Of a stretch of DNA of 64,000 nucleotides, positions 12,264-64,000 are shown piece by piece; within the stretch, counting starts at the first letter, position 1; each line of letters opens with the position of its first letter. The notes under the pieces were generated by a model that saw nothing but the letters and a program-made list of their open reading frames with translations, was not told where the DNA came from and ran no database searches. This stretch comes from Tissierellales bacterium (GTDB taxonomy: Bacteria; Bacillota; Clostridia; Tissierellales; Tissierellaceae): positions 39,183-103,182 of the forward strand of contig JASLAT010000023.1 in assembly GCA_030146915.1 (NCBI GenBank). The letters are read 5' to 3'. The position numbers were made by a program, and so were the translations under genes.

Positions 12264-12445
12264 TAAAGTAGGTAGTCTAGAAGAAAGCGAATACAAAAAA
12301 ATACTCAAGATTAGCCTTGGGACATGGCAATAGATAAAAGTTAGGTCCATAAAAGTTACATGAGTACAAATTAAAGTTATAAATTACTACCAAGTATTGA
12401 TTCTTTTAGATGAGGGTGGGTTTGGGGAATACTTAAGGAGGAAGC

Positions 12446-13792: not shown

Positions 13793-13819
13793 AAGTATTC
13801 TTCTTAGAAGAATACTTTT
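13791..13819 (+). terminator. Hairpin/terminator between the two MATE genes
   Basis: A 13-bp perfect stem aaaagtattcttc/gaagaatactttt has a 3-nt loop. Confidence 0.7.
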
Positions 13820-13848
13820 ATAATGATTATTTTGGTAAGGAGGTATAT

Positions 13849-16669: not shown

Positions 16670-16682
16670 CAGGAGGATTGTG

Positions 16683-17274: not shown

Positions 17275-17934
17275 ATGATAAAAACAGAAGAGTTGATTTT
17301 TAGACTTTTTTTAGCCACTATAATTGGTGGAATTATAGGTGCGGAAAGAGAAACAACTAGACGACCAGCTGGGCTAAGAACTCATACTTTAGTAACTTTA
17401 GGATCAGCTCTATATATGTTACTCTCATTATATGGACATGATAAGGCTAAAGCTTTAGGGCTAAATACAGATCCACATAGAATTGCAGCTCAGGTTGTTA
17501 GTGGAATGGGTTTTTTAGGGGCTGGTACTATAATCAGAACTCAAGGAAAAGTATATGGGTTGACCACGGCAGCTAATTTATGGGTTTGTGCAGCAATAGG
17601 ACTCTGTATAGGTGGTGGATATTACTTTATATCTATAATATCTGCTTTTATAGTATTAATCACTCTAGTTACTGTAACTAGTGATGAAACTAAAAGTTTT
17701 AAAGTAGAATATAAAAAGCTAATAATAACAAGTGAGGACCGTAATGGTTTGATGAAAGATATAGGTAAGAGCTTGGCAGATAATCATATAACTATTCAAA
17801 AAGTAGGGCTACTAAAGAACCAAAATAATCTAGATATAAATATATTATTAAAATTACCATTTAATATGAATAGTGATATAATATTTTCTTCTATTGAAAA
17901 AATAGATGGAGTAAAAACAGTAAGTATAGAATAA
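17275..17934 (+). CDS. MgtC/SapB family membrane protein (copy 2)
   Basis: Same motifs as copy 1 ([15 protein letters not shown]; [16 protein letters not shown]). Confidence 0.85.
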   Translation: MIKTEELIFRLFLATIIGGIIGAERETTRRPAGLRTHTLVTLGSALYMLLSLYGHDKAKALGLNTDPHRIAAQVVSGMGFLGAGTIIRTQGKVYGLTTAANLWVCAAIGLCIGGGYYFISIISAFIVLITLVTVTSDETKSFKVEYKKLIITSEDRNGLMKDIGKSLADNHITIQKVGLLKNQNNLDINILLKLPFNMNSDIIFSSIEKIDGVKTVSIE

Positions 17935-25229: not shown

Positions 25230-25334
25230 AAAATTTGAGTATATATAGTAATATAGTGTAAAATGTGTTATCATATATAGATATATGAACATACTTTGAT
25301 ATGTAAAATAAATTTATTAATAGGAGGAGTTATT

Positions 25335-26267
25335 ATGATATATGATGTAGTAATAATTGGTGCAGGTCCAGCAGGCCTTTCAGCAGGTTTATATGCTGCT
25401 AGGGCAACTCTTAATACTTTGATAATAGAAAAGGAAGCCATAGGGGGACAAATAAAAAATACTAATGAGGTTGCTAACTATCCTGGTGCAGACTTAGATA
25501 TTAGCGGAGCAGAATTAACACAAAAAATGTTAGAACAAGCTGAATCTTTTGGTGCAAAAAAAGTTAGTGATGAGATAGTAGAAGTGGATTTTTCTGGAGA
25601 TATAAAGATTCTTAAAGGTAAAGATAAGGAATACAAAGCTAAGTCAGTTATAATAGCAACTGGTGCAGTTTCTAGATTGATTGGTGCTCCAGGAGAAGAA
25701 GAATTTACAGGAAGAGGTGTATCTTACTGTGTAACTTGTGATGGTGCTTTTTTCCAAGGTTTAGAAACTTTTGTTATAGGTGGTGGAGATGCTGCCATAG
25801 AAGAAGCTATGCAATTAACTAAATTTGCGAAAAAGGTAAATGTAGTTCATAGAAGAGATGAGCTAAGAGCTGCAAAATCTATTCAAGAAAAAGCATTTAA
25901 AAATGATAAAATTAACTTTATTTGGGATTCTGTAGTAAAAGAATTAAAAGGCGATATGATGTTGGATACAGTGGTTTTAGAAAATGTTAAAACAGGTGAA
26001 GAAACAGTTTATAAAGCTGATGAAAAAGATGGAGCTTTAGGAGTTTTTGTTTATATAGGTTTCTTACCAGCAACAGATATGTTTAAAGGTCAATTAGAAA
26101 TGGAAAAAGGTTATATAGTTACTGATAATAATATGAAAACAAGTGTTGAAGGTGTTTTTGCAGCTGGAGATAATACAATTAAATCTTTAAGACAAGTTGT
26201 TACAGCAACCTCTGATGGAGCTGTAGCTGCAGTAGAAGCAGAAAAATATATAGACAATAACTTTTAG
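25335..26267 (+). CDS. trxB: Thioredoxin-disulfide reductase
   Basis: GAGPAG FAD motif, redox CVTCDG, and GGGDAA NADPH motif. The ATG at 25335 follows SD AGGAGGAG. Confidence 0.9.
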   Translation: MIYDVVIIGAGPAGLSAGLYAARATLNTLIIEKEAIGGQIKNTNEVANYPGADLDISGAELTQKMLEQAESFGAKKVSDEIVEVDFSGDIKILKGKDKEYKAKSVIIATGAVSRLIGAPGEEEFTGRGVSYCVTCDGAFFQGLETFVIGGGDAAIEEAMQLTKFAKKVNVVHRRDELRAAKSIQEKAFKNDKINFIWDSVVKELKGDMMLDTVVLENVKTGEETVYKADEKDGALGVFVYIGFLPATDMFKGQLEMEKGYIVTDNNMKTSVEGVFAAGDNTIKSLRQVVTATSDGAVAAVEAEKYIDNNF

Positions 26268-26388: not shown

Positions 26389-27450
26389 TTGAAGAAAAGA
26401 ATTACAATTTTATCATTATTACTAGCTTTAATGTTAGCACTAGTAGCATGTGGTGGAGATCAACCTGATGATGCAATTGGTGGAGCAGATGAGCAAGCTG
26501 AAGTATCTGAACTAAGAGTAGGTATGGTTACAGATGAAGGTGGAGTTAATGATCAATCTTTCAACCAATCAGCTTGGGAAGGATTACAAGAAGTTGAAAA
26601 GAACTTAGGTATTAAAGTTATGTATCAAGAATCAGAACAAGAAGCACAATATCCAGAGAACTTTGAAACTTTGTTAGATGCAGATAATGACATGATATGG
26701 GGAGTAGGATATAAATTAGCAAATGCAACTATGGATGCTGCTAAACAAAATCCTGAAATAACATATGGTATAATAGATTATGAATATGAAGATACTCCAG
26801 AAAATTTAGTAGGAGTAGTTTTTGCAGATAATGAATCTTCATTTTTAGCAGGATATATTGCAGGTCATATGACCGAAACTGATAAAGTTGGATTTATTGG
26901 TGGAAATGAAGGAGATGTTATTTGGAGATTTGATTACGGTTTTCAAGCAGGAGTTAAGTATGCTGCTAAAGAGTTAGGAAAAGATATTGAAGTAGTGTCT
27001 CAATATGCTAACTCCTTTGGAGATGCAGTAAAAGGAAAGTCAATGGCAAACAATATGTTCCAACAGGGGGCAGATATTGTAATGCATGCTGCAGGTGGAG
27101 TTGGAGACGGTGTAATAGAAGCAGCTAAAGAACAAGATAAATGGGCAATAGGTGTAGATAGAGATCAAAACTATTTAGCACCAGATCATGTTCTAACTTC
27201 AGCTATGAAGAGAGTAGATGCAGCTATTTATAAGGCTGTAGAAGATTTCAAAGATGGTAACTTTGAAGGTGGAAAAACTATAAGATATAATTTAGAAGAT
27301 GGAGCTGTAGGGCTAGCACCTTCAACAGATAAAAATGTTCCACAAGAAATCATGAATAAAGTAAAAGACGTAGAAAAATTATTGATAGATGGAGAAATAG
27401 ATGCTCCAGTAAATGAAGAAACATATAAAGAATTCTTATCAGAATTATAA
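26389..27450 (+). CDS. BMP-family (Med/PnrA-like) ABC transporter substrate-binding lipoprotein
   Basis: TTG start. Signal peptide with lipobox LVAC. VTDEGGVNDQSFNQSAWEG and GVDRDQ motifs. Confidence 0.9.
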   Translation: MKKRITILSLLLALMLALVACGGDQPDDAIGGADEQAEVSELRVGMVTDEGGVNDQSFNQSAWEGLQEVEKNLGIKVMYQESEQEAQYPENFETLLDADNDMIWGVGYKLANATMDAAKQNPEITYGIIDYEYEDTPENLVGVVFADNESSFLAGYIAGHMTETDKVGFIGGNEGDVIWRFDYGFQAGVKYAAKELGKDIEVVSQYANSFGDAVKGKSMANNMFQQGADIVMHAAGGVGDGVIEAAKEQDKWAIGVDRDQNYLAPDHVLTSAMKRVDAAIYKAVEDFKDGNFEGGKTIRYNLEDGAVGLAPSTDKNVPQEIMNKVKDVEKLLIDGEIDAPVNEETYKEFLSEL

Positions 27451-27460
27451 GATTGGTAGT

Positions 27461-27488
27461 AAAGGCTCAGGCTTCGGTCTGAGCTTTT
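27461..27488 (+). terminator. UUCG-capped hairpin/partial terminator between the binding-protein and ATPase genes
   Basis: aaaggctcaggc-ttcg-gtctgagctttt. Confidence 0.75.
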
Positions 27489-27509
27489 AATTCTAAGGGA
27501 GGTAAATCT

Positions 27510-29036
27510 GTGGCAAGTAATGGTAATAAATTAATTGAAATGAAAAACATTACGAAAAAATTTGGTAGCTTTACTGCCAATGATAATATAAATCTCTCAG
27601 TAGCAAAGGGAGAGGTACATGCTTTATTAGGAGAAAATGGAGCAGGAAAGTCAACTTTAATGAATATATTATATGGTTTACATCAGCCTACATCCGGTGA
27701 AATATATATCAACGGGAAGAGAGTAAACATAACAGACCCAAATGTAGCTATAGAACATGGTATAGGTATGGTACATCAACACTTTATGTTAATAGATACC
27801 TTTACTGTAGTTGAAAATATTATACTAGGGCAAGAGCTTACAAAAGGGCCAGTATTAGATAGAGACTTAGCAAGTAAAAGGGTAAAGGAGATTTCAGAGA
27901 AATATGGACTTTATGTAGATCCTGATGCAAAGATTCAAGACATATCAGTAGGAATGCAGCAAAGAGTTGAAATTTTAAAGGCATTATATAGAGGATCTGA
28001 TATTTTAATCTTAGATGAGCCTACTGCAGTATTAACTCCACAGGAAATAGAGGAGTTAATGGAGATTATGAAAAGCTTATCGGAACAGGGAAAAACTATA
28101 ATTATAATTACTCATAAGTTAAATGAAATAAAGTTAGCAGCTGATTATTGCACTATTATAAGAAGAGGTAAGCATATTGATACAGTAAAAGTTTCAGAAG
28201 TATCAGAACAAGATCTAGCAGAAAAAATGGTTGGGCGTGAGGTTAATTTTAAAGTAGATAAGTTAGAACAAGATACAGGAGATAAAATTTTATCTATTGA
28301 AAATTTAGTCGTTGAAGATAATAGAAAATTAAATGCAGTAGATGGTTTATCCTTAGATATATATGAGGGTGAAGTTTTAGGTATAGCTGGTATAGATGGA
28401 AATGGTCAATCAGAGTTAATAGAGGCTATAACAGGTTTAAGAAAAGTTAAAGAAGGAAAAGTTTTTATAAATAATAAAGATATAACAAACCAAACTCCAT
28501 TTGATATTATTAACTCTGGAATAAGTACAATACCAGAAGATAGGCAAAGAAGAGGTTTAGTTCTAGATTTTTCAGTTGCAGAGAATATGATTTTAGAAAA
28601 TTATTATAGGGAACCCTTTTCAAAGAAGGGAATTTTAAATCATCCTGAAATAGAGAGTTTTGCAAAAAGACTTATTAAAAAGTTTGATGTTCGACCGACT
28701 AACCCTGAGTACTTAGCAGGAGAACTTTCTGGGGGAAACCAACAAAAAGTTATAATAGCTAGAGAAGTTACAAATAATCCCGATCTTTTGATAGCTGCTC
28801 AGCCTACTAGAGGTTTAGATGTTGGCGCTATAGAATATGTACATCAATTTTTAGTAGATCAAAGAAATAAAGGAAAGGCAGTATTATTAATTTCATTTGA
28901 ATTAGATGAGATACTTAGTGTTTCTGATAGAATAGCAGTTATATATGAAGGAAAAATAGTTAAGATATTAGATGCAAAAGAAGCAGATGAGAAAAAATTA
29001 GGACTATTAATGGCAGGAGGTGGCACTGATGAATAA
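27510..29036 (+). CDS. ABC transporter ATP-binding protein (duplicated ATPase, nucleoside/sugar type)
   Basis: Walker A GENGAGKST, signature motifs (QQRVEIL and LSGGNQQK) and two NBD halves. GTG start after SD AAGGGAGG. Confidence 0.9.
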   Translation: MASNGNKLIEMKNITKKFGSFTANDNINLSVAKGEVHALLGENGAGKSTLMNILYGLHQPTSGEIYINGKRVNITDPNVAIEHGIGMVHQHFMLIDTFTVVENIILGQELTKGPVLDRDLASKRVKEISEKYGLYVDPDAKIQDISVGMQQRVEILKALYRGSDILILDEPTAVLTPQEIEELMEIMKSLSEQGKTIIIITHKLNEIKLAADYCTIIRRGKHIDTVKVSEVSEQDLAEKMVGREVNFKVDKLEQDTGDKILSIENLVVEDNRKLNAVDGLSLDIYEGEVLGIAGIDGNGQSELIEAITGLRKVKEGKVFINNKDITNQTPFDIINSGISTIPEDRQRRGLVLDFSVAENMILENYYREPFSKKGILNHPEIESFAKRLIKKFDVRPTNPEYLAGELSGGNQQKVIIAREVTNNPDLLIAAQPTRGLDVGAIEYVHQFLVDQRNKGKAVLLISFELDEILSVSDRIAVIYEGKIVKILDAKEADEKKLGLLMAGGGTDE

Positions 29037-30141
29037 GACTAAAAGTAGGCTTGTAACTACACTATTATCAATAATAGCAGGTTTCTTGGTGGGAGCTATA
29101 GCTTTAAAAATAGCTGGATTTAGTCCTATAGAAGCTTATAAGATAATATTTCAAGGAGTTTTTGGTAATCCTAGGTATATATCACATACTATAATCAGGT
29201 CAACTCCTATAATAATAACAGGTATATCTGTAGCATTTGCATTTAATACAGGACTTTTTAATATAGGTGCAGAAGGACAATTTATAATTGGAGCTTTATT
29301 TGCTACTATAGCTGGATATTTATTAAAGCTACCTCCTGTAATTCATGGGATTGTTGCTATATTAATAGGGGCCTTAGCTGGAGGTTTATGGGCAGGTATT
29401 GTAGGTTTTTTAAAGGCTAAAAGAGGAGTAAATGAAGTTATATCATCTATAATGTTAAATTGGATAGCCTTGTATTTTAATAACTATTTATTAACCAAAC
29501 CATTTTTAAGAAGGCCAAATTCGGATTCATCTTATATGATTTTAGATACAGCGAAGATAAATATTTTGGGTAAATGGAAACTTAGTGAATCAGGAAAGGC
29601 TTTTTTAGCTAATAACAATTTTTTAAGAGAATTCTTAAAGCCACCAGTAAACTATGGCTTTATATTAGCTGTAATTATAGCTATAGCAACTTGGTATATA
29701 CTAAAAAATACAAGCTTAGGATTTCAATTGAAATCTGTAGGTTTTAACAAAGATGCTGCTGAATATGCAGGGATAGATATAAAGAAAAATATAATTAGGT
29801 CTATGTTTATAGCAGGAGCTATAGCAGGACTTGCAGGAGCTACACAAGTTCTAGGAGTAACTAATCAGGTTAGTATTTTAATGTCACCTGAAGAATATGG
29901 ATTTGACGGAATGGCAGTTTCATTGATAGGAGGAAACTCTCCTTTAGGTGCAATTCCAGCTGGACTTTTATTTGGAGGATTAAAATATGGTGGAGGTAAG
30001 TTAAATTCACTTTTAAATGCACCTTCAGAAGTTATTAACATAGTTATTGGTGTTATAATATTATTTATAGCTATGCCAAATATATTTAAAACTTTAGAAG
30101 TTTTACTTCCAAAAAAAGATAGAGGTGATAAGCATGAATAA
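29029..30141 (+). CDS. ABC transporter permease (BMP system)
   Basis: Multi-TM permease with GFNIGAEGQ motif. The ATG at 29029 lies 8 nt after AGGAGG, and the gene overlaps the ATPase gene end. Confidence 0.85.
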   Translation: MNKTKSRLVTTLLSIIAGFLVGAIALKIAGFSPIEAYKIIFQGVFGNPRYISHTIIRSTPIIITGISVAFAFNTGLFNIGAEGQFIIGALFATIAGYLLKLPPVIHGIVAILIGALAGGLWAGIVGFLKAKRGVNEVISSIMLNWIALYFNNYLLTKPFLRRPNSDSSYMILDTAKINILGKWKLSESGKAFLANNNFLREFLKPPVNYGFILAVIIAIATWYILKNTSLGFQLKSVGFNKDAAEYAGIDIKKNIIRSMFIAGAIAGLAGATQVLGVTNQVSILMSPEEYGFDGMAVSLIGGNSPLGAIPAGLLFGGLKYGGGKLNSLLNAPSEVINIVIGVIILFIAMPNIFKTLEVLLPKKDRGDKHE

Positions 30142-31054
30142 ATTAGCTATATTAATAGGAATAACTTTAATGTATGCAGCACCTCTTATATATACAGCCT
30201 TAGGCGGTGTTGTTTCAGAGAATGCAGGAGTTGTAAATATAGGATTAGAAGGTATGATGACTTTTGGTGCTTTTATGGGCACAACAGTAGGTTTTTATAC
30301 TGGTAACCCTTGGTTAGGATTTTTAGCGGGTGGTCTGGCAGGAATGTTTTTAGCTCTATTACATGGAATAGCAACAATAAGTTTTGCAGCAGATCATATT
30401 ATATCGGGAATTGCTATGAATTTTATAGGACCTGGACTTTCAATTTTTTTAAGTAGACTTTATTTTAAGGGGGCAGCAATGACTGAACCTATACCTATAG
30501 ATAATAAGATTCCTAGAAGTTTGAATGGAATTCTACCAAAAAATAGTTTTTTATCAATAGCATTCAATCAATATGATACAGTCTATATCGCATTTATATT
30601 AGTTTTACTTGTATGGTTTTTATTATATAAAACTAAATTAGGTTTAAGAATAAGAGCAGTAGGGGAGCATCCTCGTGCAGCAGATACACTGGGTATAAAT
30701 GTATATTTAGTTAAATATATAGCTGTACTAATGTCTGGATTTTTAGCAGGCTTAGGAGGTGCGTCTATGAGTATTGCGGTTGTTGCAAACTTTAGACCAA
30801 GTTTAATATCAGGTCAAGGTTTTATAGCCTTAGCAGCAATGATTTTTGGTAAATGGACTCCTCAAGGCGCTATGTGGGCAGCTTTATTATTTGGAGCTGC
30901 ACAGGGATTAGGAGTACAATTAGGATCTAGTAATTTAGGTATCTCATCTAATATATTATCTATGGCTCCATACGTAATAACCTTGTTAGCACTAGTTCTT
31001 TTTGTTGGAGAAGGAACTGGTCCTAAAGCTAATGGGAAACCTTTTATAAAGTAG
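30134..31054 (+). CDS. ABC transporter permease (BMP system)
   Basis: Multi-TM permease with NIGLEGMM motif. The start overlaps the preceding stop. Confidence 0.85.
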   Translation: MNKLAILIGITLMYAAPLIYTALGGVVSENAGVVNIGLEGMMTFGAFMGTTVGFYTGNPWLGFLAGGLAGMFLALLHGIATISFAADHIISGIAMNFIGPGLSIFLSRLYFKGAAMTEPIPIDNKIPRSLNGILPKNSFLSIAFNQYDTVYIAFILVLLVWFLLYKTKLGLRIRAVGEHPRAADTLGINVYLVKYIAVLMSGFLAGLGGASMSIAVVANFRPSLISGQGFIALAAMIFGKWTPQGAMWAALLFGAAQGLGVQLGSSNLGISSNILSMAPYVITLLALVLFVGEGTGPKANGKPFIK

Positions 31055-38453: not shown

Positions 38454-39818
38454 TTAAAATAAGAACTTTGCAACTAATATTATAAATGGTAGAACAATAA
38501 TAGTTCTCTCTATAAAAATTATGAATAAATCCAATGGTGTAACTGGTATATCAGTTCCTAGTATAACAGCACCAGCTTCAGATAAATAAACTAATTGAGA
38601 TACTGATAATGTAGCTATAACGAATCTAGTCATATCGCTAGGTATACTAGCAGCTAAAACAGATGGTAAGAACATATCAGCAAATCCAATCATAATAGTT
38701 TCAGAAGCTTCTACAGCATATGGTAAATTAAAAGCTTTTAAAATTGGTAGGAAAGGTTTTCCTAGCAATTGGAATACACCTGTATATTCAGCGATTATTA
38801 CAGAAATTGTACCCATTGCCATTATAACTGGTAATACCGCTAACCACATATCAAATGCTGTTTCAAATCCATTTCTTATCATCATTCCTAATCCACCACT
38901 ATTTTCTGCTTTTTCAACAGCTAAGTGTAATGCCCACTCCGTAGTAGTATAATTATCTGGTATAGTTTCTCCAACATCCATGCTTTCACCAGTATAGTAT
39001 GTATCTGGCTTTCTAGATAGTGGAGGAATTCTTGGCATTATAATTGCCGCTATAACTCCAACTAGCAAGATTGTTAAATAATATTGGCCAAACATATGTG
39101 CAAGATCAACTTGTTGTAATACAACTAGACAGAATGTAATAGATACTGCTGAGAAAGTTGTTGAAATAACAGCTGCTTCTCTACCAGTATAATATCCATC
39201 TAGATATTGTTGGTTAGTTAAGGCAACCCCTATAGTCCCGTCCCCAACCCATGATGTAACACAGTTAACAGAAGATCTTCCTGGTAGTTTAAAAATTGGT
39301 CTCATTACAGGAGTTAATAGTACCCCAACGAACTCTAAAAGACCAAAGTCTGTTAATAATGGTAATAAAAGTCCAGCAAAGAAGAAAATTGTAAAAAGGC
39401 CTGAAAGTAGGTCGAATAAAATCAAACTACCTGTATTTTCTGACCAAATCATTTCTGGACCTAAGTGAAATAAGGTCATAACTCCTAAAATTAACCCTAT
39501 TAACCTAATTATAACCCATGGTAGCGTTGTATCCGCTATACCTCTTATAAAATCATTGTTTTCAATAAAATCAGGCTTAAATAATTTATAACTTATTGTA
39601 AGTATAGATGTTATAAGCATAAAGAAAACAATAATATAAGGTAATGAATTTTCAAGTAAGCTTGTTGTTAACTCTGCTAATAAAGCTACAACAATTGTTG
39701 TTTCTCCTTGGTAATTAAAAGGAATCATAAGCAATATAACTCCTAAAATAGAAGGAAGTATAAATTTCATATAATCCTTCATTGTACGTTCTTTTTTAAC
39801 ACTTGTGAACTCTGACAT
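38454..39818 (-). CDS. YjiH-family / nucleoside-recognition (Gate) domain membrane protein, copy A
   Basis: About 12 TM segments. The N-terminus (KDYMKFILPSILGVILLMIPF) and C-terminal SQLVYLSEAGAVILG match the YjiH family as I recall it. Confidence 0.7.
   Translation of the reverse strand: MSEFTSVKKERTMKDYMKFILPSILGVILLMIPFNYQGETTIVVALLAELTTSLLENSLPYIIVFFMLITSILTISYKLFKPDFIENNDFIRGIADTTLPWVIIRLIGLILGVMTLFHLGPEMIWSENTGSLILFDLLSGLFTIFFFAGLLLPLLTDFGLLEFVGVLLTPVMRPIFKLPGRSSVNCVTSWVGDGTIGVALTNQQYLDGYYTGREAAVISTTFSAVSITFCLVVLQQVDLAHMFGQYYLTILLVGVIAAIIMPRIPPLSRKPDTYYTGESMDVGETIPDNYTTTEWALHLAVEKAENSGGLGMMIRNGFETAFDMWLAVLPVIMAMGTISVIIAEYTGVFQLLGKPFLPILKAFNLPYAVEASETIMIGFADMFLPSVLAASIPSDMTRFVIATLSVSQLVYLSEAGAVILGTDIPVTPLDLFIIFIERTIIVLPFIILVAKFLF
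38989..39044 (-). repeat. 56-nt tract identical to 40561-40616 (inside YjiH copy A)
   Basis: ccagtatagtatgtatctggctttctagatagtggaggaattcttggcattataat occurs exactly in both paralogues. It encodes IIMPRIPPLSRKPDTYYTG. Confidence 0.95.
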
Positions 39819-39923
39819 AAACTATCCCCCTTGAAATTTGTATAGTAGTCAAAGATATATTAATTTTTCAAAGAACAGGACAAGAGTAGTCCTCAACTAC
39901 TAAAGTAATATCCCCCCATAATC

Positions 39924-39951
39924 ATTATATATGAATATTCTGAAAATGCAA
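39924..39951 (-). promoter_or_regulatory. Candidate sigma-A promoter for YjiH copy A
   Basis: On the - strand: TTGCAT (39951-39946), a 16-nt spacer, then TATAAT (39929-39924). It lies about 105 nt upstream of the ATG. Confidence 0.55.
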
Positions 39952-39993
39952 ACAATAATAGTAAAATTAGTAAAAATAGCAAATAATGTCCAT

Positions 39994-40026
39994 AAAAAAA
40001 CCAGGTATTAAAGAATAACCTGGTTT
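39994..40026 (-). terminator. Intrinsic terminator of YjiH copy B (overlaps its last codons)
   Basis: On the - strand: aaaccaggt-loop-acctggttt followed by tttttt. The stop codon (40008-40010) lies in the loop. Confidence 0.85.
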
Positions 40027-41396
40027 CTAAATATAAATTTTGCTACTAATATTATGATGGGTAAACTTATAAGGGTTCTTTCTATAAAAATAATAAACAT
40101 ATCTAAGGGACTTATAGGAATTTCTGTACCTAGTATAACAGCTCCAGCTTCTGATAAATAAACTAATTGTGATACAGAAAGACTAGCAATTATAAACCTA
40201 GTCATATCACTAGGTATGTTAGCAGCTAAGACAGATGGTAAAAACATATCTGAGAACCCAACCATTACAGTTTGAGAAGCTTCTTTAGCATAAGGTACTT
40301 TCATAATTTCTAAAAAAGGTAAAAATGGTTTACCCAATATTTGGAAAAAACTTGTATATTCAGCAATAATTACCGCAATACTACCAAATGCCATTATTAC
40401 TGGTAATACTGCTAACCACATATCAAAAGCTGTTTTAAATCCATTTTTTATTATAAAAAAAAGACCCCTATGTTCTTTAGCTTTTTTTACAGCAAGTTGT
40501 AATCCCCATTCACTAGTTGAGAAATTTGTAGGAATTGATTCTCCAAGATCAGCTGATTTTCCAGTATAGTATGTATCTGGCTTTCTAGATAGTGGAGGAA
40601 TTCTTGGCATTATAATAGCTGCAACCATACCTGTTAAAACTATTGTAAAGTAATATTGACCAAACATATTAGATAGTCCAACCTGTTCTAGTACAACTAA
40701 AGAAAATGTAATAGAAACTGCAGAAAATGTTGTTGATATTATAGAGGCTTCTTTGGCAGTATAATATCCTTGTAAATATTGTTGATTTGTTAAAGTTACA
40801 CCTATAGTTCCATCTCCTACCCAAGAAGCAACACAATCGATAGAAGATCTTCCCGGTAACTTAAAAAATGGTCTCATAATAGGTGTTAATAAGACACCTA
40901 TAAACTCTAGTAATCCAAAGTCTGTTAAAAATGGAAGAAAAAGTCCAGCAAACAGAAATATAGTAAATAGACCAGTTAAAAGATCATAAAGTATTAGTCC
41001 ACCAGTATCTTCACTCCATATAGCTTTTGGACCTATTTTATTTATAACTAAAAAAGTCAAAATAAATCCGATAACACGTATGATAACCCATATAAAACTA
41101 ACATCAAATATATTTTTTAAAAAAATATTTTCTTCAATAAACTTAGGCCTTGATATATAGTACCATATAGTTAATAAAGCTGTTACAAATGTGAACATTG
41201 TAATTATGTAAGGAATAACGTCTGAGAGCATACTTGTAACTTGACTAGATAGGAAAGCCACAACTATGGTAGTCTCACCCTTATAGCTAAAAGGAAACAT
41301 TAGCATTAAGACACCAAATAAGGATGGTACTATAAAACTTAAGTATTCTTTTAAGGTAAAGTTTTCTTTTTTTACCTTCTCAAAATGTGATTGCAT
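40008..41396 (-). CDS. YjiH-family / nucleoside-recognition domain membrane protein, copy B (tandem paralogue)
   Basis: Collinear with copy A over the full length. SD AAGGAGG lies upstream. Confidence 0.7.
   Translation of the reverse strand: MQSHFEKVKKENFTLKEYLSFIVPSLFGVLMLMFPFSYKGETTIVVAFLSSQVTSMLSDVIPYIITMFTFVTALLTIWYYISRPKFIEENIFLKNIFDVSFIWVIIRVIGFILTFLVINKIGPKAIWSEDTGGLILYDLLTGLFTIFLFAGLFLPFLTDFGLLEFIGVLLTPIMRPFFKLPGRSSIDCVASWVGDGTIGVTLTNQQYLQGYYTAKEASIISTTFSAVSITFSLVVLEQVGLSNMFGQYYFTIVLTGMVAAIIMPRIPPLSRKPDTYYTGKSADLGESIPTNFSTSEWGLQLAVKKAKEHRGLFFIIKNGFKTAFDMWLAVLPVIMAFGSIAVIIAEYTSFFQILGKPFLPFLEIMKVPYAKEASQTVMVGFSDMFLPSVLAANIPSDMTRFIIASLSVSQLVYLSEAGAVILGTEIPISPLDMFIIFIERTLISLPIIILVAKFIFRNQVIL
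40561..40616 (-). repeat. 56-nt tract identical to 38989-39044 (inside YjiH copy B)
   Basis: Same 56-mer as above; the flanking sequence diverges immediately on both sides. Confidence 0.95.
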
Positions 41397-41862: not shown

Positions 41863-41904
41863 TAACTGGGGTATAATAAATATAGAGAGTAAGGGGTGGT
41901 AAAA

Positions 41905-44025
41905 ATGACAATAAGAGAGTATCTACTAAATATTATAAATGATAAGAAATATAAGCCTTTATCTAAAGATGAGTTTGCTGCTATATTTAACTTTGATAGG
42001 AAAAATAGAAAAGCATTATTTAATGTCTTAGATAGTTTAGAAAAAGAAGGATTAATAGTAAGAAATAATGAAGAAAAATATGTGTTAATAAATGATAGAT
42101 ATTTAGTTGTTGGACATATACAGGGAAATGAAAAAGGGTTTGCTTTTTTAATTCCTTTAGATAAAGAAAAAGAAGATGTATTTATATCCAAAAGTAATTT
42201 AAAAGATGCACTTCATGGAGATAAAGTCGTTGTAAATATCTTAAGTGAACAAGAGAGTGATAGAAGACAAGAAGGAGAGGTTTTAAGAGTCTTAGAAAGA
42301 AAAAATAAGACTATAGTTGGAACTTTTACCGATAGTAAAAATTTTGGTTTTGTTATTCCAGATGAAAGTAAAATAAATTATGATATCTTTATACCTAAGT
42401 CATCTATAAATTCAGCTAAACATAATCAAAAAGTAGTTGTTGAGATAACTAAATGGCCAATAAATGGAAAAAATCCTGAAGGAAAGATTATAGAAATTTT
42501 AGGATATATGTCTGAAAAAGGTACAGATATTAGATCTGTTATAAAACAATATGATCTTGCAGAAGATTTTCCAGATGAAGTACTAGATTATGTAGATGAA
42601 ATTAATCAAGAGGTAACTGAGGAAGAAATTGAAGGAAGGCTCGATCTAAGAGATGAAAATATTTTTACTATTGATGGCTTTGATGCTAAAGATTTAGATG
42701 ATGCAGTTTCAATTAAAAAACTAGAGAATGGTAATTATAGGCTAGGAGTTCATATAGCAGATGTAGCACACTATGTAAAGGAAGGTTCAGTTTTAGATCA
42801 AGATGCTATGTCTAGAGGTAATTCAGTATATTTATTAGATAGAGTAGTTCCAATGTTACCAGAAGATCTATCAAATGGAATATGTTCTTTAAATCCTGGT
42901 GAAGATAGGCTATGTTTATCAATAATTATGGATATAGATAAATATGGAAATGTTAAGGATAATATAATTAAGGAAACGGTAATTAATAGTAAAAAAAGAT
43001 TAGTGTATGATGATGTATCTGATTATCTTGAGTTTTCAAATGAAGAAGCGGAGAAAAAATTAGAAGGTGTTACTGAAGAGTTAGGTTTAATGCAAGAGTT
43101 AGCAGAGATTTTGAGAAGTAAAAGAGAAGAGCGAGGCAGCATAGATTTTGATTTTATTGAAACAAGAATAATTTTAGATGAAAAAGGAAAAGCTGTTAAT
43201 ATAGTTGAAGAAGAAAGAAGAATAGGTAATAAAATAATAGAAGAGTTTATGCTTATTTCTAATGAAACTATATCTGAACAGTTCTTTTGGGCAGAAATAC
43301 CTTTTCTATATAGAATTCATGAAAATCCTGCACCAGAGAAAATTGAAGAGTTTAGTAAAGTTATTCACAACTTAGGTTATAGTTTAAAAGGAAAACAAGA
43401 TATTCACCCTAAAGCACTTCAACAATTATTAGAAGAGGTTAAAGGCAAAAAAGAAGAACCTTTGATATCGACTCTTATGTTAAGATCTTTAAGAAAAGCA
43501 ATTTATAGTGAAGTACCAGATATACATTTTGGGTTAGCTTCAGAATATTATTCTCATTTTACAGCACCTATAAGAAGATATCCAGATTTAGTAATTCACA
43601 GAATTATAAAGGACTATATAAATGGAAAACTTTCTAATAAAAAGATAAAAAAGCTAGAGAAAACTTTACCAGAAATTGCAGAGCATACTTCTAAGACTGA
43701 AAGAGTGGCAGAGGAAGCAGAAAGAGAAGTAGAAGATATGAAAAAAGCTGAATATATGCAAGAATATATAGGAGAAAATTTCAAAGCAGTAGTTTCATCA
43801 CTAACTAGGTTTGGTATATTTGTTCAATTAGATAATACTATTGAAGGTCTAATAAGGTTTGCAGATATGAATGATGATTATTATGATTTTGATGAAGAAA
43901 ATTATTTAGTAATGGGTGAAAGAACAGGAAAGGTTTATAAATTAGGGGATAAAGTATCAGTAAAGCTGATTAATGCAAGTCCAGCTAAAAGAGAAATAGA
44001 TTTTAAATTTATAAGGGAGGAATAG
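41905..44025 (+). CDS. rnr: Ribonuclease R
   Basis: Cold-shock-like N-terminal domains, RNB domain (FTIDGFDAKDLDDAVS, HFGLA..YSHFTAPIRRYPDL) and a C-terminal S1 domain. Confidence 0.95.
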   Translation: MTIREYLLNIINDKKYKPLSKDEFAAIFNFDRKNRKALFNVLDSLEKEGLIVRNNEEKYVLINDRYLVVGHIQGNEKGFAFLIPLDKEKEDVFISKSNLKDALHGDKVVVNILSEQESDRRQEGEVLRVLERKNKTIVGTFTDSKNFGFVIPDESKINYDIFIPKSSINSAKHNQKVVVEITKWPINGKNPEGKIIEILGYMSEKGTDIRSVIKQYDLAEDFPDEVLDYVDEINQEVTEEEIEGRLDLRDENIFTIDGFDAKDLDDAVSIKKLENGNYRLGVHIADVAHYVKEGSVLDQDAMSRGNSVYLLDRVVPMLPEDLSNGICSLNPGEDRLCLSIIMDIDKYGNVKDNIIKETVINSKKRLVYDDVSDYLEFSNEEAEKKLEGVTEELGLMQELAEILRSKREERGSIDFDFIETRIILDEKGKAVNIVEEERRIGNKIIEEFMLISNETISEQFFWAEIPFLYRIHENPAPEKIEEFSKVIHNLGYSLKGKQDIHPKALQQLLEEVKGKKEEPLISTLMLRSLRKAIYSEVPDIHFGLASEYYSHFTAPIRRYPDLVIHRIIKDYINGKLSNKKIKKLEKTLPEIAEHTSKTERVAEEAEREVEDMKKAEYMQEYIGENFKAVVSSLTRFGIFVQLDNTIEGLIRFADMNDDYYDFDEENYLVMGERTGKVYKLGDKVSVKLINASPAKREIDFKFIREE

Positions 44026-44026
44026 T

Positions 44027-44479
44027 ATGACTACGGTAGCTAGAAATAGAAAAGCAAGGCATGAATATCATATAGAAGATACTGTAGAAGCGGGAATAGT
44101 TTTAAAAGGTACAGAGGTCAAGTCTTTAAGACAAGGTAAGGCTAGTATACAAGATAGCTATGCTTATATAAATGATGGTGAAGCATTTATATCTAATTTG
44201 CATATAAGTCCTTATGAACAAGGAAATATTCATAATCAAGATCCTATAAGAACAAGAAAGTTACTATTAAAGAAGAAGGAAATTTTAAACTTACACATAG
44301 CAATGAGCCAAAAGGGATATACTTTAGTTCCTTTGTCTATATACTTTAAAAATGGTTATGCTAAAGTACAAATAGCTGTAGCAAAAGGTAAAAAGATTCA
44401 CGACAGGAGACAGGACATTGCAAAGAAAGATGCTGAAAGAAGAATGAGACAACATTCATCTGAAAAGTATAATGCTTAA
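44027..44479 (+). CDS. smpB: SsrA-binding protein SmpB
   Basis: NRKARHEYHI, GTEVKSLR and RTRKLLL motifs. Confidence 0.95.
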   Translation: MTTVARNRKARHEYHIEDTVEAGIVLKGTEVKSLRQGKASIQDSYAYINDGEAFISNLHISPYEQGNIHNQDPIRTRKLLLKKKEILNLHIAMSQKGYTLVPLSIYFKNGYAKVQIAVAKGKKIHDRRQDIAKKDAERRMRQHSSEKYNA

Positions 44480-44506
44480 AACTCTGATTACTTAAATCGG
44501 AGTTTT
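44478..44506 (+). terminator. Hairpin/terminator after smpB
   Basis: A 12-bp stem aaaactctgatt/aatcggagtttt with one G-U pair. Confidence 0.65.
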
Positions 44507-44513
44507 AGTCAAA

Positions 44514-44542
44514 TTGACAAACTATACAAAGTTATATATAAT
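44514..44542 (+). promoter_or_regulatory. Consensus sigma-A promoter of ssrA
   Basis: TTGACA (44514-44519), a 17-nt spacer, then TATAAT (44537-44542), 12 nt before the mature 5' end. Confidence 0.8.
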
Positions 44543-44554
44543 ATATTAATGCAT

Positions 44555-44913
44555 GGGGGCGAAATTTGGTTTCGACGGGAATGTGGAATCAAGAGTAGCG
44601 AGCCGTTGTTGTCACTCAACGTAAAAAAGGGCACTAAATTTAAATGCAGATAATAACAATTTTGCATTAGCAGCATAATATAAGACTGCTCATCTTGCTT
44701 AAGAGTCCTACGACTTAAGTAAAGGTGTCAACTATTTAGTAGGGAACCGAGCTTAGCAAAGCTTTGAGCTAGGAACGGAACTTATGAAGCTACCAACCAT
44801 AATATCTAGTTAGTAAGAGATTATGGGAGGGAAAACTAAAATACTAACTGCGCTCGGAGAAACTCATGTGGAAGCGTTTTCGGACGTGGGTTCGACTCCC
44901 ACCGCCTCCACCA
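44555..44913 (+). ncRNA. ssrA: Transfer-messenger RNA (tmRNA, SsrA)
   Basis: 5' GGGGGCG pairs with 3' CGCCTCC, including the G3:U Ala identity pair, followed by ACCA. T-arm GGGTTCGACTCCC is present. The tag ORF GCA GAT AAT AAC AAT TTT GCA TTA GCA GCA TAA (44646-44678) encodes ADNNNFALAA. The gene lies next to smpB. Confidence 0.95.
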
Positions 44914-52697: not shown

Positions 52698-52777
52698 AGA
52701 GAATAATGATACTTATATTGAGAAAAAAAGTTCTGTTTATGATAAAATGTAAAAGTAAAAGAAATGGAGGATGTTAT

Positions 52778-53299
52778 ATGGATTTGAAATCAACAATAAG
52801 AATTATAGAAGACTTTCCTAAGGAAGGCATAAGTTTTAAAGATATTACTACTTTAACTAAAAATGGACCAGCTTTTAAGGAGGCCGTTAAGATTATGGCT
52901 GATAACTTAAGGGATAAAGATGTCGACTATATCGCAGGACCAGAAGCTAGAGGATTTATTTTTGGTGCAGCTGTTGCTTATGAGTTAGGAGTTGGATTTG
53001 TTCAGATTAGAAAGAAAGGTAAGTTACCAGGTAAGGTAAAAGAAGCTAGTTACGATTTAGAGTATGGGTCTAATACTTTACAAGTACATGTAGATTCTAT
53101 AGAAAAAGGAAAAAATGTTGCTATAGTAGATGATTTACTAGCTACAGGTGGTACAGTTTCTGCAGTATCTAAATTGATAACGGAAGAGTTTGAAGCTAAT
53201 TTAGTAGGACTAGAGTTTTTAATAGAATTAACTTCTTTAGAAGGTAGAAAAAAATTAAAAGGATATGATGTTAACTCTATTGTAACGTATGATATTTAA
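52778..53299 (+). CDS. apt: Adenine phosphoribosyltransferase
   Basis: [15 protein letters not shown] and the PRPP motif [13 protein letters not shown]. The ATG at 52778 follows SD GGAGGA; the track start at 52706 is an upstream extension. Confidence 0.95.
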
Positions 53300-57059: not shown

Positions 57060-57088
57060 TTGTATTAGAATACATAATTATATATATT
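57060..57088 (+). promoter_or_regulatory. Candidate sigma-A promoter of the nrdD-like gene
   Basis: TTGTAT (57060-57065), a 17-nt spacer, then TATATT (57083-57088). Confidence 0.5.
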
Positions 57089-57104
57089 GCACTAGATATA
57101 GATG
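57089..57104 (+). promoter_or_regulatory. NrdR-box-like palindrome 1
   Basis: GCACTAGATATAGATG compared with the NrdR consensus acaCwAtATaTwGtgt. The core CTAGATATAG matches 9 of 10 positions. Confidence 0.45.
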
Positions 57105-57119
57105 TTTGATATTATATAT

Positions 57120-57135
57120 AGACAATATGTGGTTA
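57120..57135 (+). promoter_or_regulatory. NrdR-box-like palindrome 2
   Basis: AGACAATATGTGGTTA has a core matching 8 of 10 positions. Its centre is 31 bp from box 1, the typical tandem NrdR-box spacing, and it overlaps the SD. Confidence 0.4.
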
Positions 57136-57145
57136 GGAGGATTGG

Positions 57146-59224
57146 ATGATAACCAAAATTAAAAAAAGAGATGGAAGGGAAGTTCCTTTTAATATAGAAA
57201 AGATATCTAATGCTATCTTTAAAGCTGCACAAGCAGTAGGAGGACAAGATTATAAGACCTCTATGGATCTTGCAGAAAAGGTAGTAAATAGAATACAGAC
57301 TTTAGATTTTATAGATTTACCAACAGTTGAAGATATACAAGATTCTGTTGAAAAAGTTTTGATAGAAGAAGGGCATGCGAAAACGGCCAAAGAATATATA
57401 TTATATAGGGCTGAGAGAAATAGAGTTAGAGAGATGAATACAAGGTTGATGAAAATCTTTGAAGACTTAACTTTTAATGGTGAGTCAAGTAATCTAGCAG
57501 AAACGTCAAAATCAATAATGTTTAAATATGCTAGTGAATCTTCAAAAAAATTTTATGATCTATTTGTACTTAACCCAGAGCATTCTAAGGCAGATAAAGC
57601 TGGAGAGATACATATAGATAATTTAGAGTTTTTAACTTTAACAACTAACAATTGCCAGTTAGATCTTATAGATATGTTTAAAGAAAAATTTGAATTTAAT
57701 CATATTAGTTCATATTTTAATGTTATATTAACAAGCTTACAATTGAATCAAAATGATCAATATGGACATCAGTCAATTCCTAACTTTGATTATTTAATAG
57801 CTGTAGCAGTTAAGAATGTTTATAAACATCAATATAGAAAAAATCTAAAAGAGTATGTAGATCTGTTAATTAAAGATATAGACTTAGAAGAAAATCTTGA
57901 AAATATGTTTAGTACTTTAGAGATGGAATATAAATTAATCCCTTCTATAACAGATAAGAATCTATATATAATTAAAGAAAAAGAATATTTAAAAGAAATT
58001 ATTTTAGATGAGGACCTTGTAGATAAATTACAACAGTTATCTCTGTCATATGCTTATAAAGAGATTGATGAACAGTTGTATATAGCGATGAAAGATTTCA
58101 TATTTAGTTTAAATCTACTTAGTTCTAACATAGGTGGGAGTAATTTACTAACTACAATAAATTATGGAACAGATATATCAAGTGAGGGAAGATTAGTTAT
58201 AAAAAATATAATTAAAGCTAGCTATGATTATGTGTTATTGAACAAAAAATATATATACCCAGTTCATATCTTTAAACTGAAAGATGGAACTAATCTTAGG
58301 TTTAATGACCCTAACTATGACTTATTAAAAGAATCATATAAACTTTTAGGAGCATCTAAAAGTTTAAATTATTCATTTATGGATGCAGATTATAACATAA
58401 AGTACTATGACGAAAATTTTAATAGTAGTGAAGTAGCATATACAGCAGATGGTTATAGAATAATAGATAACGTTTATGATAAAGATAAATCAGTAGTATC
58501 GGGTAGGGGTAATTTAAGTTCAACAGTTATAAATTTACCTAGATTAGCGCTGGAAAGTGAAGGGAATATAGGTGATTTTTTTAAGTTGTTAGATAGTAGG
58601 GTAAACTTAGTAATTACTCAACTATTAGAAAGGTTTGAAATTCAAGCTTCAAAAAAAGTAAAAAATTATCCTTTTCTTATGGGGAAAGGAATATGGATGG
58701 ATTCACAATTTTTGGAGGATGAATCTAGTATAAGACAAGTTCTTAAACATGGAAATTTAAATTTAGGCTTTATAGGTTTAAGAGAAAGTTTAATAATACT
58801 AGAAGGTAAGGATCACTCAGAAAGCCTTGAGTCCCAAGAGTTAGGAATTAGAATTATTAAGTACTTAAGGGATAGGATGGATGATATAAGTGAACAATAT
58901 TCTATGAATTTTCAAATAATGTCTTATAATGATAATGCGGTTAGTAAGAAATTTTTAAAATTAGATTATGAAAAGTTTGGTCTAATAGAAGGAGTAACAA
59001 ATCAAGAACATTATAGTTTAGGATTTAATTTAGATAAAGATTCTAATATATCTCTATTAGAAAGAATAAAAATAGAAGCACCATATCATAAGCTAACAAA
59101 TGGTGGACATAGAACTAAATTATACTTAGATGAAAAAAGAGCTTATTCTTGGCAAGAATTATATTTAATACTATTAACTATGATGGAAAAAGGAATCGGA
59201 TTTTGTAATCTAAAACTTATTTAA
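57146..59224 (+). CDS. NrdD-like protein: ATP-cone plus class III RNR core, lacking catalytic Cys, Zn-ribbon and glycyl-radical domain
   Basis: ATP-cone (KRDGREVPFNIEKI...EYILYR). NrdD core blocks GEIHIDNL..NNCQLDL, IPNFDY, NDPNYD, GRGNLSSTVINLPRLALES and EAPYHKLTNGGH. There are only two Cys residues (C170, C687), and the protein ends before the region that carries CxxC...CxxC and RxxGY in true NrdD. Confidence 0.8.
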   Translation: MITKIKKRDGREVPFNIEKISNAIFKAAQAVGGQDYKTSMDLAEKVVNRIQTLDFIDLPTVEDIQDSVEKVLIEEGHAKTAKEYILYRAERNRVREMNTRLMKIFEDLTFNGESSNLAETSKSIMFKYASESSKKFYDLFVLNPEHSKADKAGEIHIDNLEFLTLTTNNCQLDLIDMFKEKFEFNHISSYFNVILTSLQLNQNDQYGHQSIPNFDYLIAVAVKNVYKHQYRKNLKEYVDLLIKDIDLEENLENMFSTLEMEYKLIPSITDKNLYIIKEKEYLKEIILDEDLVDKLQQLSLSYAYKEIDEQLYIAMKDFIFSLNLLSSNIGGSNLLTTINYGTDISSEGRLVIKNIIKASYDYVLLNKKYIYPVHIFKLKDGTNLRFNDPNYDLLKESYKLLGASKSLNYSFMDADYNIKYYDENFNSSEVAYTADGYRIIDNVYDKDKSVVSGRGNLSSTVINLPRLALESEGNIGDFFKLLDSRVNLVITQLLERFEIQASKKVKNYPFLMGKGIWMDSQFLEDESSIRQVLKHGNLNLGFIGLRESLIILEGKDHSESLESQELGIRIIKYLRDRMDDISEQYSMNFQIMSYNDNAVSKKFLKLDYEKFGLIEGVTNQEHYSLGFNLDKDSNISLLERIKIEAPYHKLTNGGHRTKLYLDEKRAYSWQELYLILLTMMEKGIGFCNLKLI

Positions 59225-59251
59225 AAAGACTTTTCTATAAAGTCTTTTTTT
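59224..59251 (+). terminator. Intrinsic terminator immediately after the nrdD-like ORF
   Basis: aaaagactt-ttctat-aagtctttt followed by a T-run. Confidence 0.9.
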
Positions 59252-59289
59252 GTTGTATAATATAAGTTGATGTTTTAAGGAGGGAGAAG

Positions 59290-63539: not shown

Positions 63540-64000
63540 ATGTCTAAGATTGTTACAGTAAAAAACAAAGGTATAGGTAAGATTAGACTAACTGAAGATA
63601 TAAAGACTATAGAAGATCTTTCTAAGTTTATATTTAAAGAAGACTATAAAAAGTACTTAGGTGTTAGGGTAAACAATAGATTATATAACTTAAGGAGAAG
63701 TTTGAAAGTTAATGAAGATGATGTATTAGAGTTTATAGATATAAATAATGTTGATGGATTTAGAATTTATACTAGAACGGTAATTGCTGTTTTTATTAAG
63801 GCTTGTAAGGACTTATATAAGGATAGGGAAGTAAGAATTGAACAATTTTTAGGTAGTGGTCTTTATGCAGGATTCGAAAATGATTACTCTATAAGTTTTA
63901 AGGATATAAGTAAAATTAAAAATAGAATGATTGAAATAGTTAAAGAAGACTATCCGCTTATAAGAACTCAATATTCAACAGAAGAGGCAATAGAGATATT
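63540..64000 (+). CDS. Protein with TGS/ThrRS-N-like N-terminus (3' end outside window); possibly a nucleoside-kinase fusion
   Basis: The ATG at 63540 lies 7 nt after SD AAGGAG, and the frame is open to the window end. The N-terminal beta-grasp-like segment resembles ThrRS/uridine-kinase fusion proteins of Clostridia; this product call is weak. Confidence 0.5.
   Translation, partial: MSKIVTVKNKGIGKIRLTEDIKTIEDLSKFIFKEDYKKYLGVRVNNRLYNLRRSLKVNEDDVLEFIDINNVDGFRIYTRTVIAVFIKACKDLYKDREVRIEQFLGSGLYAGFENDYSISFKDISKIKNRMIEIVKEDYPLIRTQYSTEEAIEI

Follow-up and report, generated by a model that had tools for sequence, protein, structure and literature searches.

We analyzed a window of 64,000 nucleotides from a Tissierellales bacterium (contig JASLAT010000023.1, assembly GCA_030146915.1), in which the plus-strand gene at 57146-59224 encodes a relative of NrdD, the anaerobic ribonucleotide reductase (RNR) of class III. 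The product retains the N-terminal ATP-cone and has lost its catalytic machinery, and the gene is kept intact by selection. Its 692-codon open reading frame (ORF) contains no internal stop, whereas the five alternative frames of that region hold 31-109 stops each; the window as a whole has a G+C content of 29.4%. The features of the gene and its product are as follows.

57146..59224, plus strand: coding sequence of the NrdD-derived, predicted non-catalytic protein, 692 amino acids (ORF, Pfam, NCBIfam, alignments).
57155..57421, plus strand: ATP-cone, residues 4-92, intact (PF03477 and alignments).
57482..57496, plus strand: degenerate NxN flap, ESSNL versus canonical ENANI (alignment).
57611..57622, plus strand: HxHD triphosphate-binding motif, residues 156-159, reading HIDN versus canonical HIHD, with H158D and D159N (alignments).
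57650..57655, plus strand: beta-A cysteine pair, the first Cys replaced by Asn169 and the second kept as C170 (alignments).
58091..58144, plus strand: degenerate specificity-site helix and loop 2, with E316K, H320F, N321S, R328N and Q332S (alignment).
58439..58459, plus strand: finger loop lacking the thiyl-radical cysteine, YTADGYR(I) versus canonical YMGCRTR(V) (alignments).
58925..58939, plus strand: phosphate-binding loop, residues 594-598, YNDNA versus canonical TPAEG (alignments).
59192..59224, plus strand: C-terminal end ..GIGFCNLKLI and stop, at the last barrel strand (alignment).

Profile searches place a PF03477 ATP-cone at residues 4-92 (E 4.6e-24; 85.2 bits against a Pfam cut-off of 25.8) and the Pfam NRDD domain (PF13597) at residues 113-687 (E 5.1e-91), the latter covering profile positions 1-502 of 562 and leaving the C-terminal 60 (503-562) unmatched. 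For the closest NCBIfam equivalog, PRK07111, the match spans positions 1-683 of 746 (684-746 unmatched) at 616.7 bits, under its 764-bit cut-off, and TIGR02487 reaches a score of 270.5, under its cut-off of 326.35. Identity to Tissierellaceae NrdDs is 52-54%, and beyond one near-identical copy canonical NrdDs, at 52-53% identity, are the closest relatives among 5.8 billion proteins. The 10-stranded alpha/beta barrel of NrdD is recognized by the NRDD profile, by phmmer against P. copri NrdD 8p23 (7e-88, 30% identity) and in an AlphaFold2 model, which has a mean predicted local distance difference test score (pLDDT) of 91.5 and a predicted template modeling (TM) score of 0.85, the former NxN flap being the sole region with a pLDDT below 50. 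Foldseek matches to the model are at the top all NrdD, led by P. copri 8p23/8p2c at TM 0.72-0.81 (0.81 for 8p23_B), and TM values against NrdD structures range from 0.7 to 0.88. An initial annotation of this DNA, made without database searches, had proposed an intact NrdD homolog with an ATP-cone and a missing C terminus; both the profile coverage and the predicted fold agree with that proposal.

To locate functional residues, we took their roles from P. copri NrdD (PMC11226230) and mapped them through alignments, including a reference alignment of six canonical Tissierellaceae NrdDs of 770-775 amino acids. All six continue past the stop of the window protein into IGYGSINHP, a CxxxxxxxxxxCPxC zinc site and RRITGY, and about 83 residues, the zinc ribbon plus the glycyl-radical domain (GRD), are missing from it. 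Its last residue corresponds to about residue 676 of P. copri NrdD, and the dATP-inhibited form of that enzyme has no ordered residues beyond about 676 (PMC11226230). The only cysteines are C170 and C687, with none between residues 171 and 686. The finger loop has no cysteine at all; the residue under the thiyl cysteine is D435 in a MAFFT alignment and Y437 in a HMMER alignment against T4. In the beta-A pair, where canonical proteins read TTTCCQID, the window protein reads TTNNCQLD, having lost the first cysteine, the one with the catalytic role (T4 C79, P. copri C171; PMC11226230). No NrdG-like or GRD-like sequence was detected by tblastn across the 64-kb window (best E >= 2), and the activase gene nrdG, usually a neighbor of nrdD, was not found within it; the radical-SAM gene at 60128, two genes downstream, encodes the tRNA-modification enzyme MnmL/YtqA (TIGR01212).

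On these points the initial annotation was largely correct: it had noted the end at GIGFCNLKLI ahead of the zinc ribbon and glycyl-radical loop, the presence of two cysteines only, and the lack of nrdG in the window. It had also named Tyr437 as the substitute for the thiyl cysteine, where the absence of a cysteine stands in either alignment and the identity of the substitute depends on which alignment is used, and it had one cysteine of the pair changed to glutamine, where the loss is real, the substitute is Asn169 and the glutamine follows the retained C170.

The losses extend to sites outside the radical pathway. The NxN flap has lost its first Asn and adjoins an 8-residue deletion; the functions of this flap and of the HxHD triphosphate motif are documented for P. 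copri NrdD, in which the TPAE phosphate loop comprises residues 577-581, including Glu581 (PMC11226230). Through the alignment, N321S, R328N and Q332S correspond to P. copri Asn298, Arg305 and Gln309, which are the specificity-site Asn and the loop 2 Arg and Gln (PMC11226230). The specificity-site beta-hairpin, which becomes ordered when effector binds (PMC11226230), falls within the 8-residue gap that follows residue 186 of the window protein. These comparisons do not support the earlier suggestion of substrate and effector pockets that remain in use: the NxN, HxHD, TPAE and loop 2 elements and the specificity Asn and hairpin are changed or deleted.

A conservation census compared 122 positions conserved in at least 88% of 17 diverse canonical NrdDs with 19 truncated proteins of the kind found in the window. 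Thirty-four of the 122 are kept in at least 80% of the truncated proteins, many of them Gly, Pro, Asp and Asn residues of the barrel blocks, and 30 are kept in 30% or fewer; these lost positions map to the flap, the beta-A cysteine, loop 2, the finger and TPAE loops and the GRD-contacting surfaces. Polar residues common to live and dead proteins are D343, R349, K379, N390, D392, D413, N417, N463 and R496. The alignments show a window protein that is incapable of radical chemistry, lacking the thiyl cysteine, the beta-A cysteine and the GRD, and in which the substrate-binding and specificity-site determinants are lost as well, a loss wider than that of radical chemistry. Of the three nucleotide sites, only the ATP-cone looks functional.

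The ATP-cone region departs little from the active enzymes. Residues 1-100 share 78% identity with canonical Tissierellaceae NrdDs, versus 82% within the canonical set, and the remainder of the protein shares 38-56%, versus 72-89%. K7, R8, D9, R11 and the YILYRAERNR helix align with P. copri Lys7, Arg8, Asp9, Arg11, Tyr83, Arg87 and Arg91, cone residues that contact two ATP/dATP molecules (PMC11226230). By sequence, the protein has both the profile match and the basic and aromatic contact residues of a two-nucleotide ATP-cone.

The same locus is present in an independently assembled Logan contig from run ERR11489479, 99.8% identical and with the same stop. Over 7.6 kb the two sequences show 13 differences, of which five fall inside the gene (two synonymous and three nonsynonymous: M260I, E396K and N619D), which are too few to speak to selection. 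The 2079-bp gene carries 5 differences versus 4 in about 4.7 kb of flanking genes, numbers that are small, and four more mismatches cluster at 63956-63965, the last bases of the overlap between the window and the contig. In the protein collection, the exact protein is on record twice only, as NCBI entry P0395 and Logan P0001, three residues apart.

An exhaustive search of cluster representatives returned two orthologs, P0241 (680 amino acids) and P0243 (695 amino acids), that align end to end with the window protein, lack the catalytic cysteines and end at the same alignment column. Their loci (L008 and L009) come from GCA_030146705.1 and from Logan SRR32923650 with related runs, six Logan contigs in all. 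The window and both ortholog contigs have in common the genes for an acyl-ACP thioesterase, a cold-shock protein and a peptidyl-prolyl isomerase upstream, and those for a Cof-type HAD hydrolase, MnmL, RluB and DUF6648 downstream. Across the three loci, identity is 47-49% for the NrdD-like protein and 56-72% for its neighbors. RNase R places the source organism in Tissierellaceae, at 62-63% from Tissierella and 70% from the nearest sampled relatives.

We compared the proportions of nonsynonymous (pN) and synonymous (pS) differences among the three orthologs. Synonymous sites are saturated (pS 0.67-0.80), with pN at 0.13-0.16 for the cone and 0.35-0.40 for the core. The corresponding pN values for a pair of similarly saturated canonical nrdD genes are 0.105 and 0.123. 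Relative to catalytic NrdD, the core changes at about three times the rate, yet far from neutrally. All internal gaps among the orthologs are in-frame, and although a stop would arise from 6.4% of single-base changes, none of the orthologs has one. Among core positions invariant in the orthologs, 131 of 172 retain the canonical residue, and 19 residues (for example E316K, G424N and N471S) are fixed in the three truncated proteins and differ from an invariant canonical residue. Invariant cone positions number 69 of 100 among the three truncated orthologs versus 76 of 100 among three canonical proteins. The ATP-cone is constrained almost as strongly as in catalytic NrdD, and in three or more deeply diverged lineages purifying selection keeps the gene intact, monocistronic and at an unchanged chromosomal position. 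Loss of catalytic residues in a gene under purifying selection in several lineages is the pattern of a pseudoenzyme, as the initial annotation had favored over simple decay, and the conservation of both the truncation and the cysteine loss in two other Tissierellaceae lineages supports that judgment.

The sequences flanking the gene carry the following features.

57087..57115, plus strand: putative promoter, -35 TTGCAC (57087-57092), 17-nt spacer, -10 TATTAT (57110-57115) (sequence and cross-species conservation).
57089..57104, plus strand: NrdR-box-like site 1, GCACTAGATATAGATG, overlapping the -35 (11/16 against ACACWATATATWGTGT).
57120..57135, plus strand: NrdR-box-like site 2, AGACAATATGTGGTTA, abutting the ribosome-binding site (11/16 against ACACWATATATWGTGT).
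57135..57140, plus strand: Shine-Dalgarno sequence AGGAGG, 5 nt before the ATG (sequence).
59223..59249, plus strand: intrinsic-terminator-like hairpin and T-run (folding, -9.4 kcal/mol, z -3.68).

The block TTGCAC..ATAT.G.T.TTTG is invariant upstream of both truncated orthologs and a canonical Tissierella nrdD, and a TATTAT-like -10 is conserved there too, although a consensus promoter scan made no call at 57087..57115, where the -35 matches 3/6. The site homologous to box 1 matches 12/16 in L008 and in two canonical nrdD loci (L002 and L016) and is conserved in the upstream alignment. Boxes 1 and 2 are offset by 31 bp, equivalent to a 15-bp spacer, as they are in L008; the offset is 30-33 bp in L002 and L016, and box 2 of L002 matches 15/16 of the consensus. 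NrdR boxes are usually spaced by 15-16 bp, and the form of NrdR that binds DNA carries dATP plus ATP (PMC12051234). No match to the literal NrdR consensus with up to three mismatches was found at the locus, nor did the window show an nrdR gene. We consider NrdR control of the truncated gene probable and not more, because both boxes match 11/16, a level that single sites reach by chance. The four aligned upstream regions all have GGAGG unchanged. The terminator stem is 11 bp and A/U-rich, and a consensus terminator scan missed it because it has fewer than three G-C pairs; a hairpin and T-run also follow the stop in L008 and L009. The motif TGTTGTATAAT / TGTGTATAAT, of extended -10 type, is conserved past the terminator (window 59249-59262, L008 ~12107-12117, L009 ~3217-3227) and presumably serves the downstream Cof-type HAD hydrolase gene as its promoter. 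The strong Shine-Dalgarno sequence named in the initial annotation is confirmed by this conservation. Its strong terminator is a real hairpin of modest stability, and its promoter with NrdR-box-like sites holds up as a block shared with canonical nrdD, with boxes that singly do not exceed chance.

Truncated NrdD derivatives are found beyond these three loci. Among the best 150 representatives of 50%-identity clusters, about 20 end at most a few residues from the last barrel strand and lack both catalytic cysteines, the finger-loop cysteine being missing in all of them, and the members we looked up all lie inside their contigs. The clusters are small and rare. PRK07111 is the best NCBIfam match for 15 of 15 truncated members tested, no NCBIfam model is specific for them, and a profile built from 15 truncated proteins has canonical NrdDs as all of its top 120 matches. 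A protein scan of species-representative genome contigs, in which the source genome is not included, returned canonical Tissierella nrdD and Bacteroidales ATP-cone fragments only. Two members, P0263 and P0270 (of which P0270 is annotated as Thomasclavelia sp.), are mutually syntenic, both following HTH_6, fumarate hydratase and VanY genes.

As for origins, the window clade is nearer in every partition to canonical Tissierellaceae NrdD (83% in the cone, 50% over residues 101-330 and 48% over residues 331-692) than to other truncated clades, and the window protein has an insert at residues 232-300 that is specific to Tissierellaceae. P0279, by contrast, goes with P0264, a canonical representative, by quartets of 44:11:2 and by a shared indel pattern. 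Since these affinities differ, at least two independent origins of truncated NrdD derivatives are probable. Some quartets group truncated proteins together (25 versus 20), and long-branch or convergence effects cannot be separated from true grouping on the present phylogenetics. A neighbor-joining tree that lumped most truncated proteins conflicts with the quartet counts and indels and was set aside, because it used uncorrected distances and has long branches.

Other members of the family show further variations. P0357, P0307 and P0340 keep the zinc ribbon and have lost the radical Gly and both catalytic cysteines, P0357 having RIRRINNT where RIRRITGY would stand; these proteins may represent dead forms that are intermediate or arose in parallel. 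At one locus (L018), an 88-amino-acid TSCPD-domain protein (PF12637; 7601-7867) is encoded directly upstream of a truncated, Cys-less NrdD-like gene (P0352; 8001-10019), a single case that could be coincidence; TSCPD is a Cys-rich domain at the C terminus of many class II RNRs. At another (L013), the truncated P0265 gene (10001-12091) overlaps a lipoate-protein ligase gene (12078-12908) by 14 nt, with a glycine-cleavage operon after it, which suggests co-transcription with the ligase in that lineage, unlike the monocistronic gene of the window. Many NrdD cluster representatives are 900-1780 amino acids long, and their matches to the query are broken into two to four stretches, in several of them with a break directly after the finger-loop Cys, which looks like inteins at the catalytic loop.

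Elsewhere, the window encodes thymidine kinase (tdk; 16680-17252), a BMP-family lipoprotein with an ABC ATPase and two permeases of nucleoside-uptake type (26389-31054), adenine phosphoribosyltransferase (52706-53299) and thioredoxin reductase (25296-26267), salvage and redox genes that would be relevant if the organism depends on salvage instead of RNR. A trans-translation cluster at 41896-44913 comprises rnr (RNase R), smpB and transfer-messenger RNA (RF00023, 188.8 bits; 44555-44913). Paralogs occur as three tandem or near-tandem pairs: two MATE-type efflux proteins (12446-15198), two MgtC/SapB-like membrane proteins (15243-15923 and 17275-17934), which flank cyclophilin and tdk, and two CD0519/CD1768-family membrane proteins (38454-41396, minus strand). 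A role in a defense system was considered and dropped, PADLOC returning no match.

The explanation we favor, with moderate confidence, is that the gene encodes a non-catalytic descendant of a Tissierellaceae-type NrdD in which a predicted working two-nucleotide ATP-cone sits on a folded, ligand-dead barrel, and which would act as an ATP/dATP-sensing regulatory or scaffold protein within the nrd regulon. The ancestral nrdD-type promoter with its two NrdR-like operators would still drive transcription, and because of this promoter the protein would be made when dATP is low and the RNR genes are derepressed. Its cone would still bind ATP or dATP, making it an ATP/dATP-responsive regulator or scaffold of deoxynucleotide metabolism, and its output would probably be nucleotide-dependent oligomerization through the cone, with itself or with a catalytic RNR. 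The role for which this truncated NrdD has been selected is probably regulatory, non-enzymatic and of a kind not described before. More tentatively, and with considerable doubt, radical-dead, GRD-less NrdDs with intact cones may have arisen repeatedly in Bacillota as an unrecognized class of non-enzymatic ATP/dATP sensors that tune the supply of deoxynucleoside triphosphates (dNTPs) beside NrdR, for example through cone-mediated association with RNR.

Several observations weigh against the favored explanation. Most neighboring genes are better conserved than this one, whose core evolves about three times faster than that of catalytic NrdD, and the ratio of 3:2 nonsynonymous to synonymous differences between near-identical strains is compatible with weak constraint. 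A single 11/16 NrdR-like match is expected about three times per kb by chance in DNA this rich in A+T. Conservation of the helices that form the canonical dimer interface and the specificity site is poor even across the three orthologs, which weakens the idea of a simple heterodimer with catalytic NrdD. Finally, the truncated lineages have no partner gene in common, their contexts differing between clades, and no new motif specific to truncated proteins is shared across lineages.

A different use for the barrel would be a new, non-radical catalytic or ligand-binding activity, with the ATP-cone kept solely as an allosteric switch. Purifying selection on the core is what such an activity would call for, and the 19 ortholog-fixed departures from the canonical residues, together with the polar residues that live and dead proteins still share, could belong to it. 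We nonetheless judge it unlikely, given that no truncated-specific motif recurs across lineages, that the profile of the truncated proteins scores canonical NrdDs best, and that canonical residues at 131 of 172 invariant core positions are expected if the fold alone is maintained. The opposite possibility, a slowly decaying relic of an nrdD made dispensable by another RNR or by deoxynucleoside salvage and not yet disrupted, could draw on the loss of all catalytic elements, the fast core, the small and rare clusters, the tdk and nucleoside-type uptake genes in the window, and a density of single-nucleotide polymorphisms above that of the flanks with the 3:2 ratio just mentioned. Decay is hard to reconcile with three orthologs that at synonymous saturation are all open and end at the same residue with in-frame gaps only, when 6.4% of point mutations would give a stop, with a pN half of pS or lower, or with a cone conserved as in active enzymes and a conserved promoter, Shine-Dalgarno sequence and terminator; we hold it to be very unlikely. 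Its recent variant, a new pseudogene, is excluded because saturated pS goes with low pN, in-frame gaps and a shared stop position.

The position of the stop, exactly at the last barrel strand and hence at a natural domain boundary, would also suit a split reductase, in which a separate small glycyl-radical protein restores activity in the manner of GrcA/YfiD, and spare-part glycyl-radical proteins of this sort are known for pyruvate formate-lyase. The thiyl cysteine, the beta-A cysteine and the substrate motifs are all absent, however, and no GRD-like or NrdG sequence exists in the 64 kb; trans-complementation is effectively excluded because a radical supplied in trans would find no acceptor and no substrate, and we regard it as exceedingly improbable. 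That the exact protein is on record from two sequences only could point to an assembly or sequencing artifact or to a recent, strain-specific truncation, a prospect we consider negligible: assembly error is excluded because the independent, near-identical Logan contig has the same gene and the same stop, and the same architecture recurs in GCA_030146705.1 and six Logan contigs.

Compared with known systems, the window gene is closest to canonical PRK07111-type NrdD (Tissierella praeacuta; P. copri 8P23), with which it shares the fold, the two-nucleotide ATP-cone, a collinear sequence and a promoter with a pair of NrdR-like boxes. It differs in genomic neighborhood and in having no adjacent nrdG, which lies immediately downstream of the canonical genes at L002 and L016. 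Yeast Rnr4 is a catalytically dead paralog of the class I radical-generating subunit Rnr2 and works as an obligate heterodimer partner. Like the window protein it belongs to the RNR family, lacks the radical and cofactor residues and is selected as a non-catalytic component, in its case of dNTP synthesis, but it is a class I small (beta) subunit, whereas the window protein derives from a class III catalytic subunit whose dimer-interface helices are not conserved. The betaherpesvirus proteins M45/UL45 are dead class I R1 homologs, repurposed for control of host cell death through added motifs. They too are large-subunit RNR homologs without catalytic residues, kept for a non-enzymatic role; they are viral and of class I, and nothing comparable to their added function is evident here. 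NrdR, the transcriptional repressor of nrd genes, is non-enzymatic, has an ATP-cone as its only nucleotide module and reads ATP/dATP; the window gene appears to carry NrdR-type operators and would share a regulatory circuit with it; NrdR is, however, about 150 amino acids long with a zinc-ribbon DNA-binding domain, whereas the window protein has 692, a dead barrel and no recognizable DNA-binding domain. GrcA/YfiD with oxygen-cleaved pyruvate formate-lyase also involves a glycyl-radical-enzyme barrel without its C-terminal radical domain, but that barrel keeps its catalytic cysteines and is reactivated in trans, whereas the window protein has no such cysteines and the window no separate radical domain. 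We found no description of radical-dead, truncated NrdD homologs in the open literature, including the principal papers on class III RNR phylogeny and structure, in agreement with the initial annotation, which knew of no described function. The protein is of a known kind, a pseudoenzyme from a well-known family, for which class I examples exist and a dead class III example was not found described.

RNRs alone supply DNA precursors de novo, and the ATP-cone is their classic allosteric master switch. Truncated proteins of this type are annotated as anaerobic ribonucleoside-triphosphate reductase (e.g., MDD8049005.1), and metabolic reconstructions that count them as RNR would be wrong. If the favored explanation is true, selection can act on a function that belongs to the cone-plus-barrel unit itself, anaerobes may possess a new layer of dNTP-pool regulation, and these proteins would offer a natural GRD-less NrdD for studying cone-driven conformational signaling.

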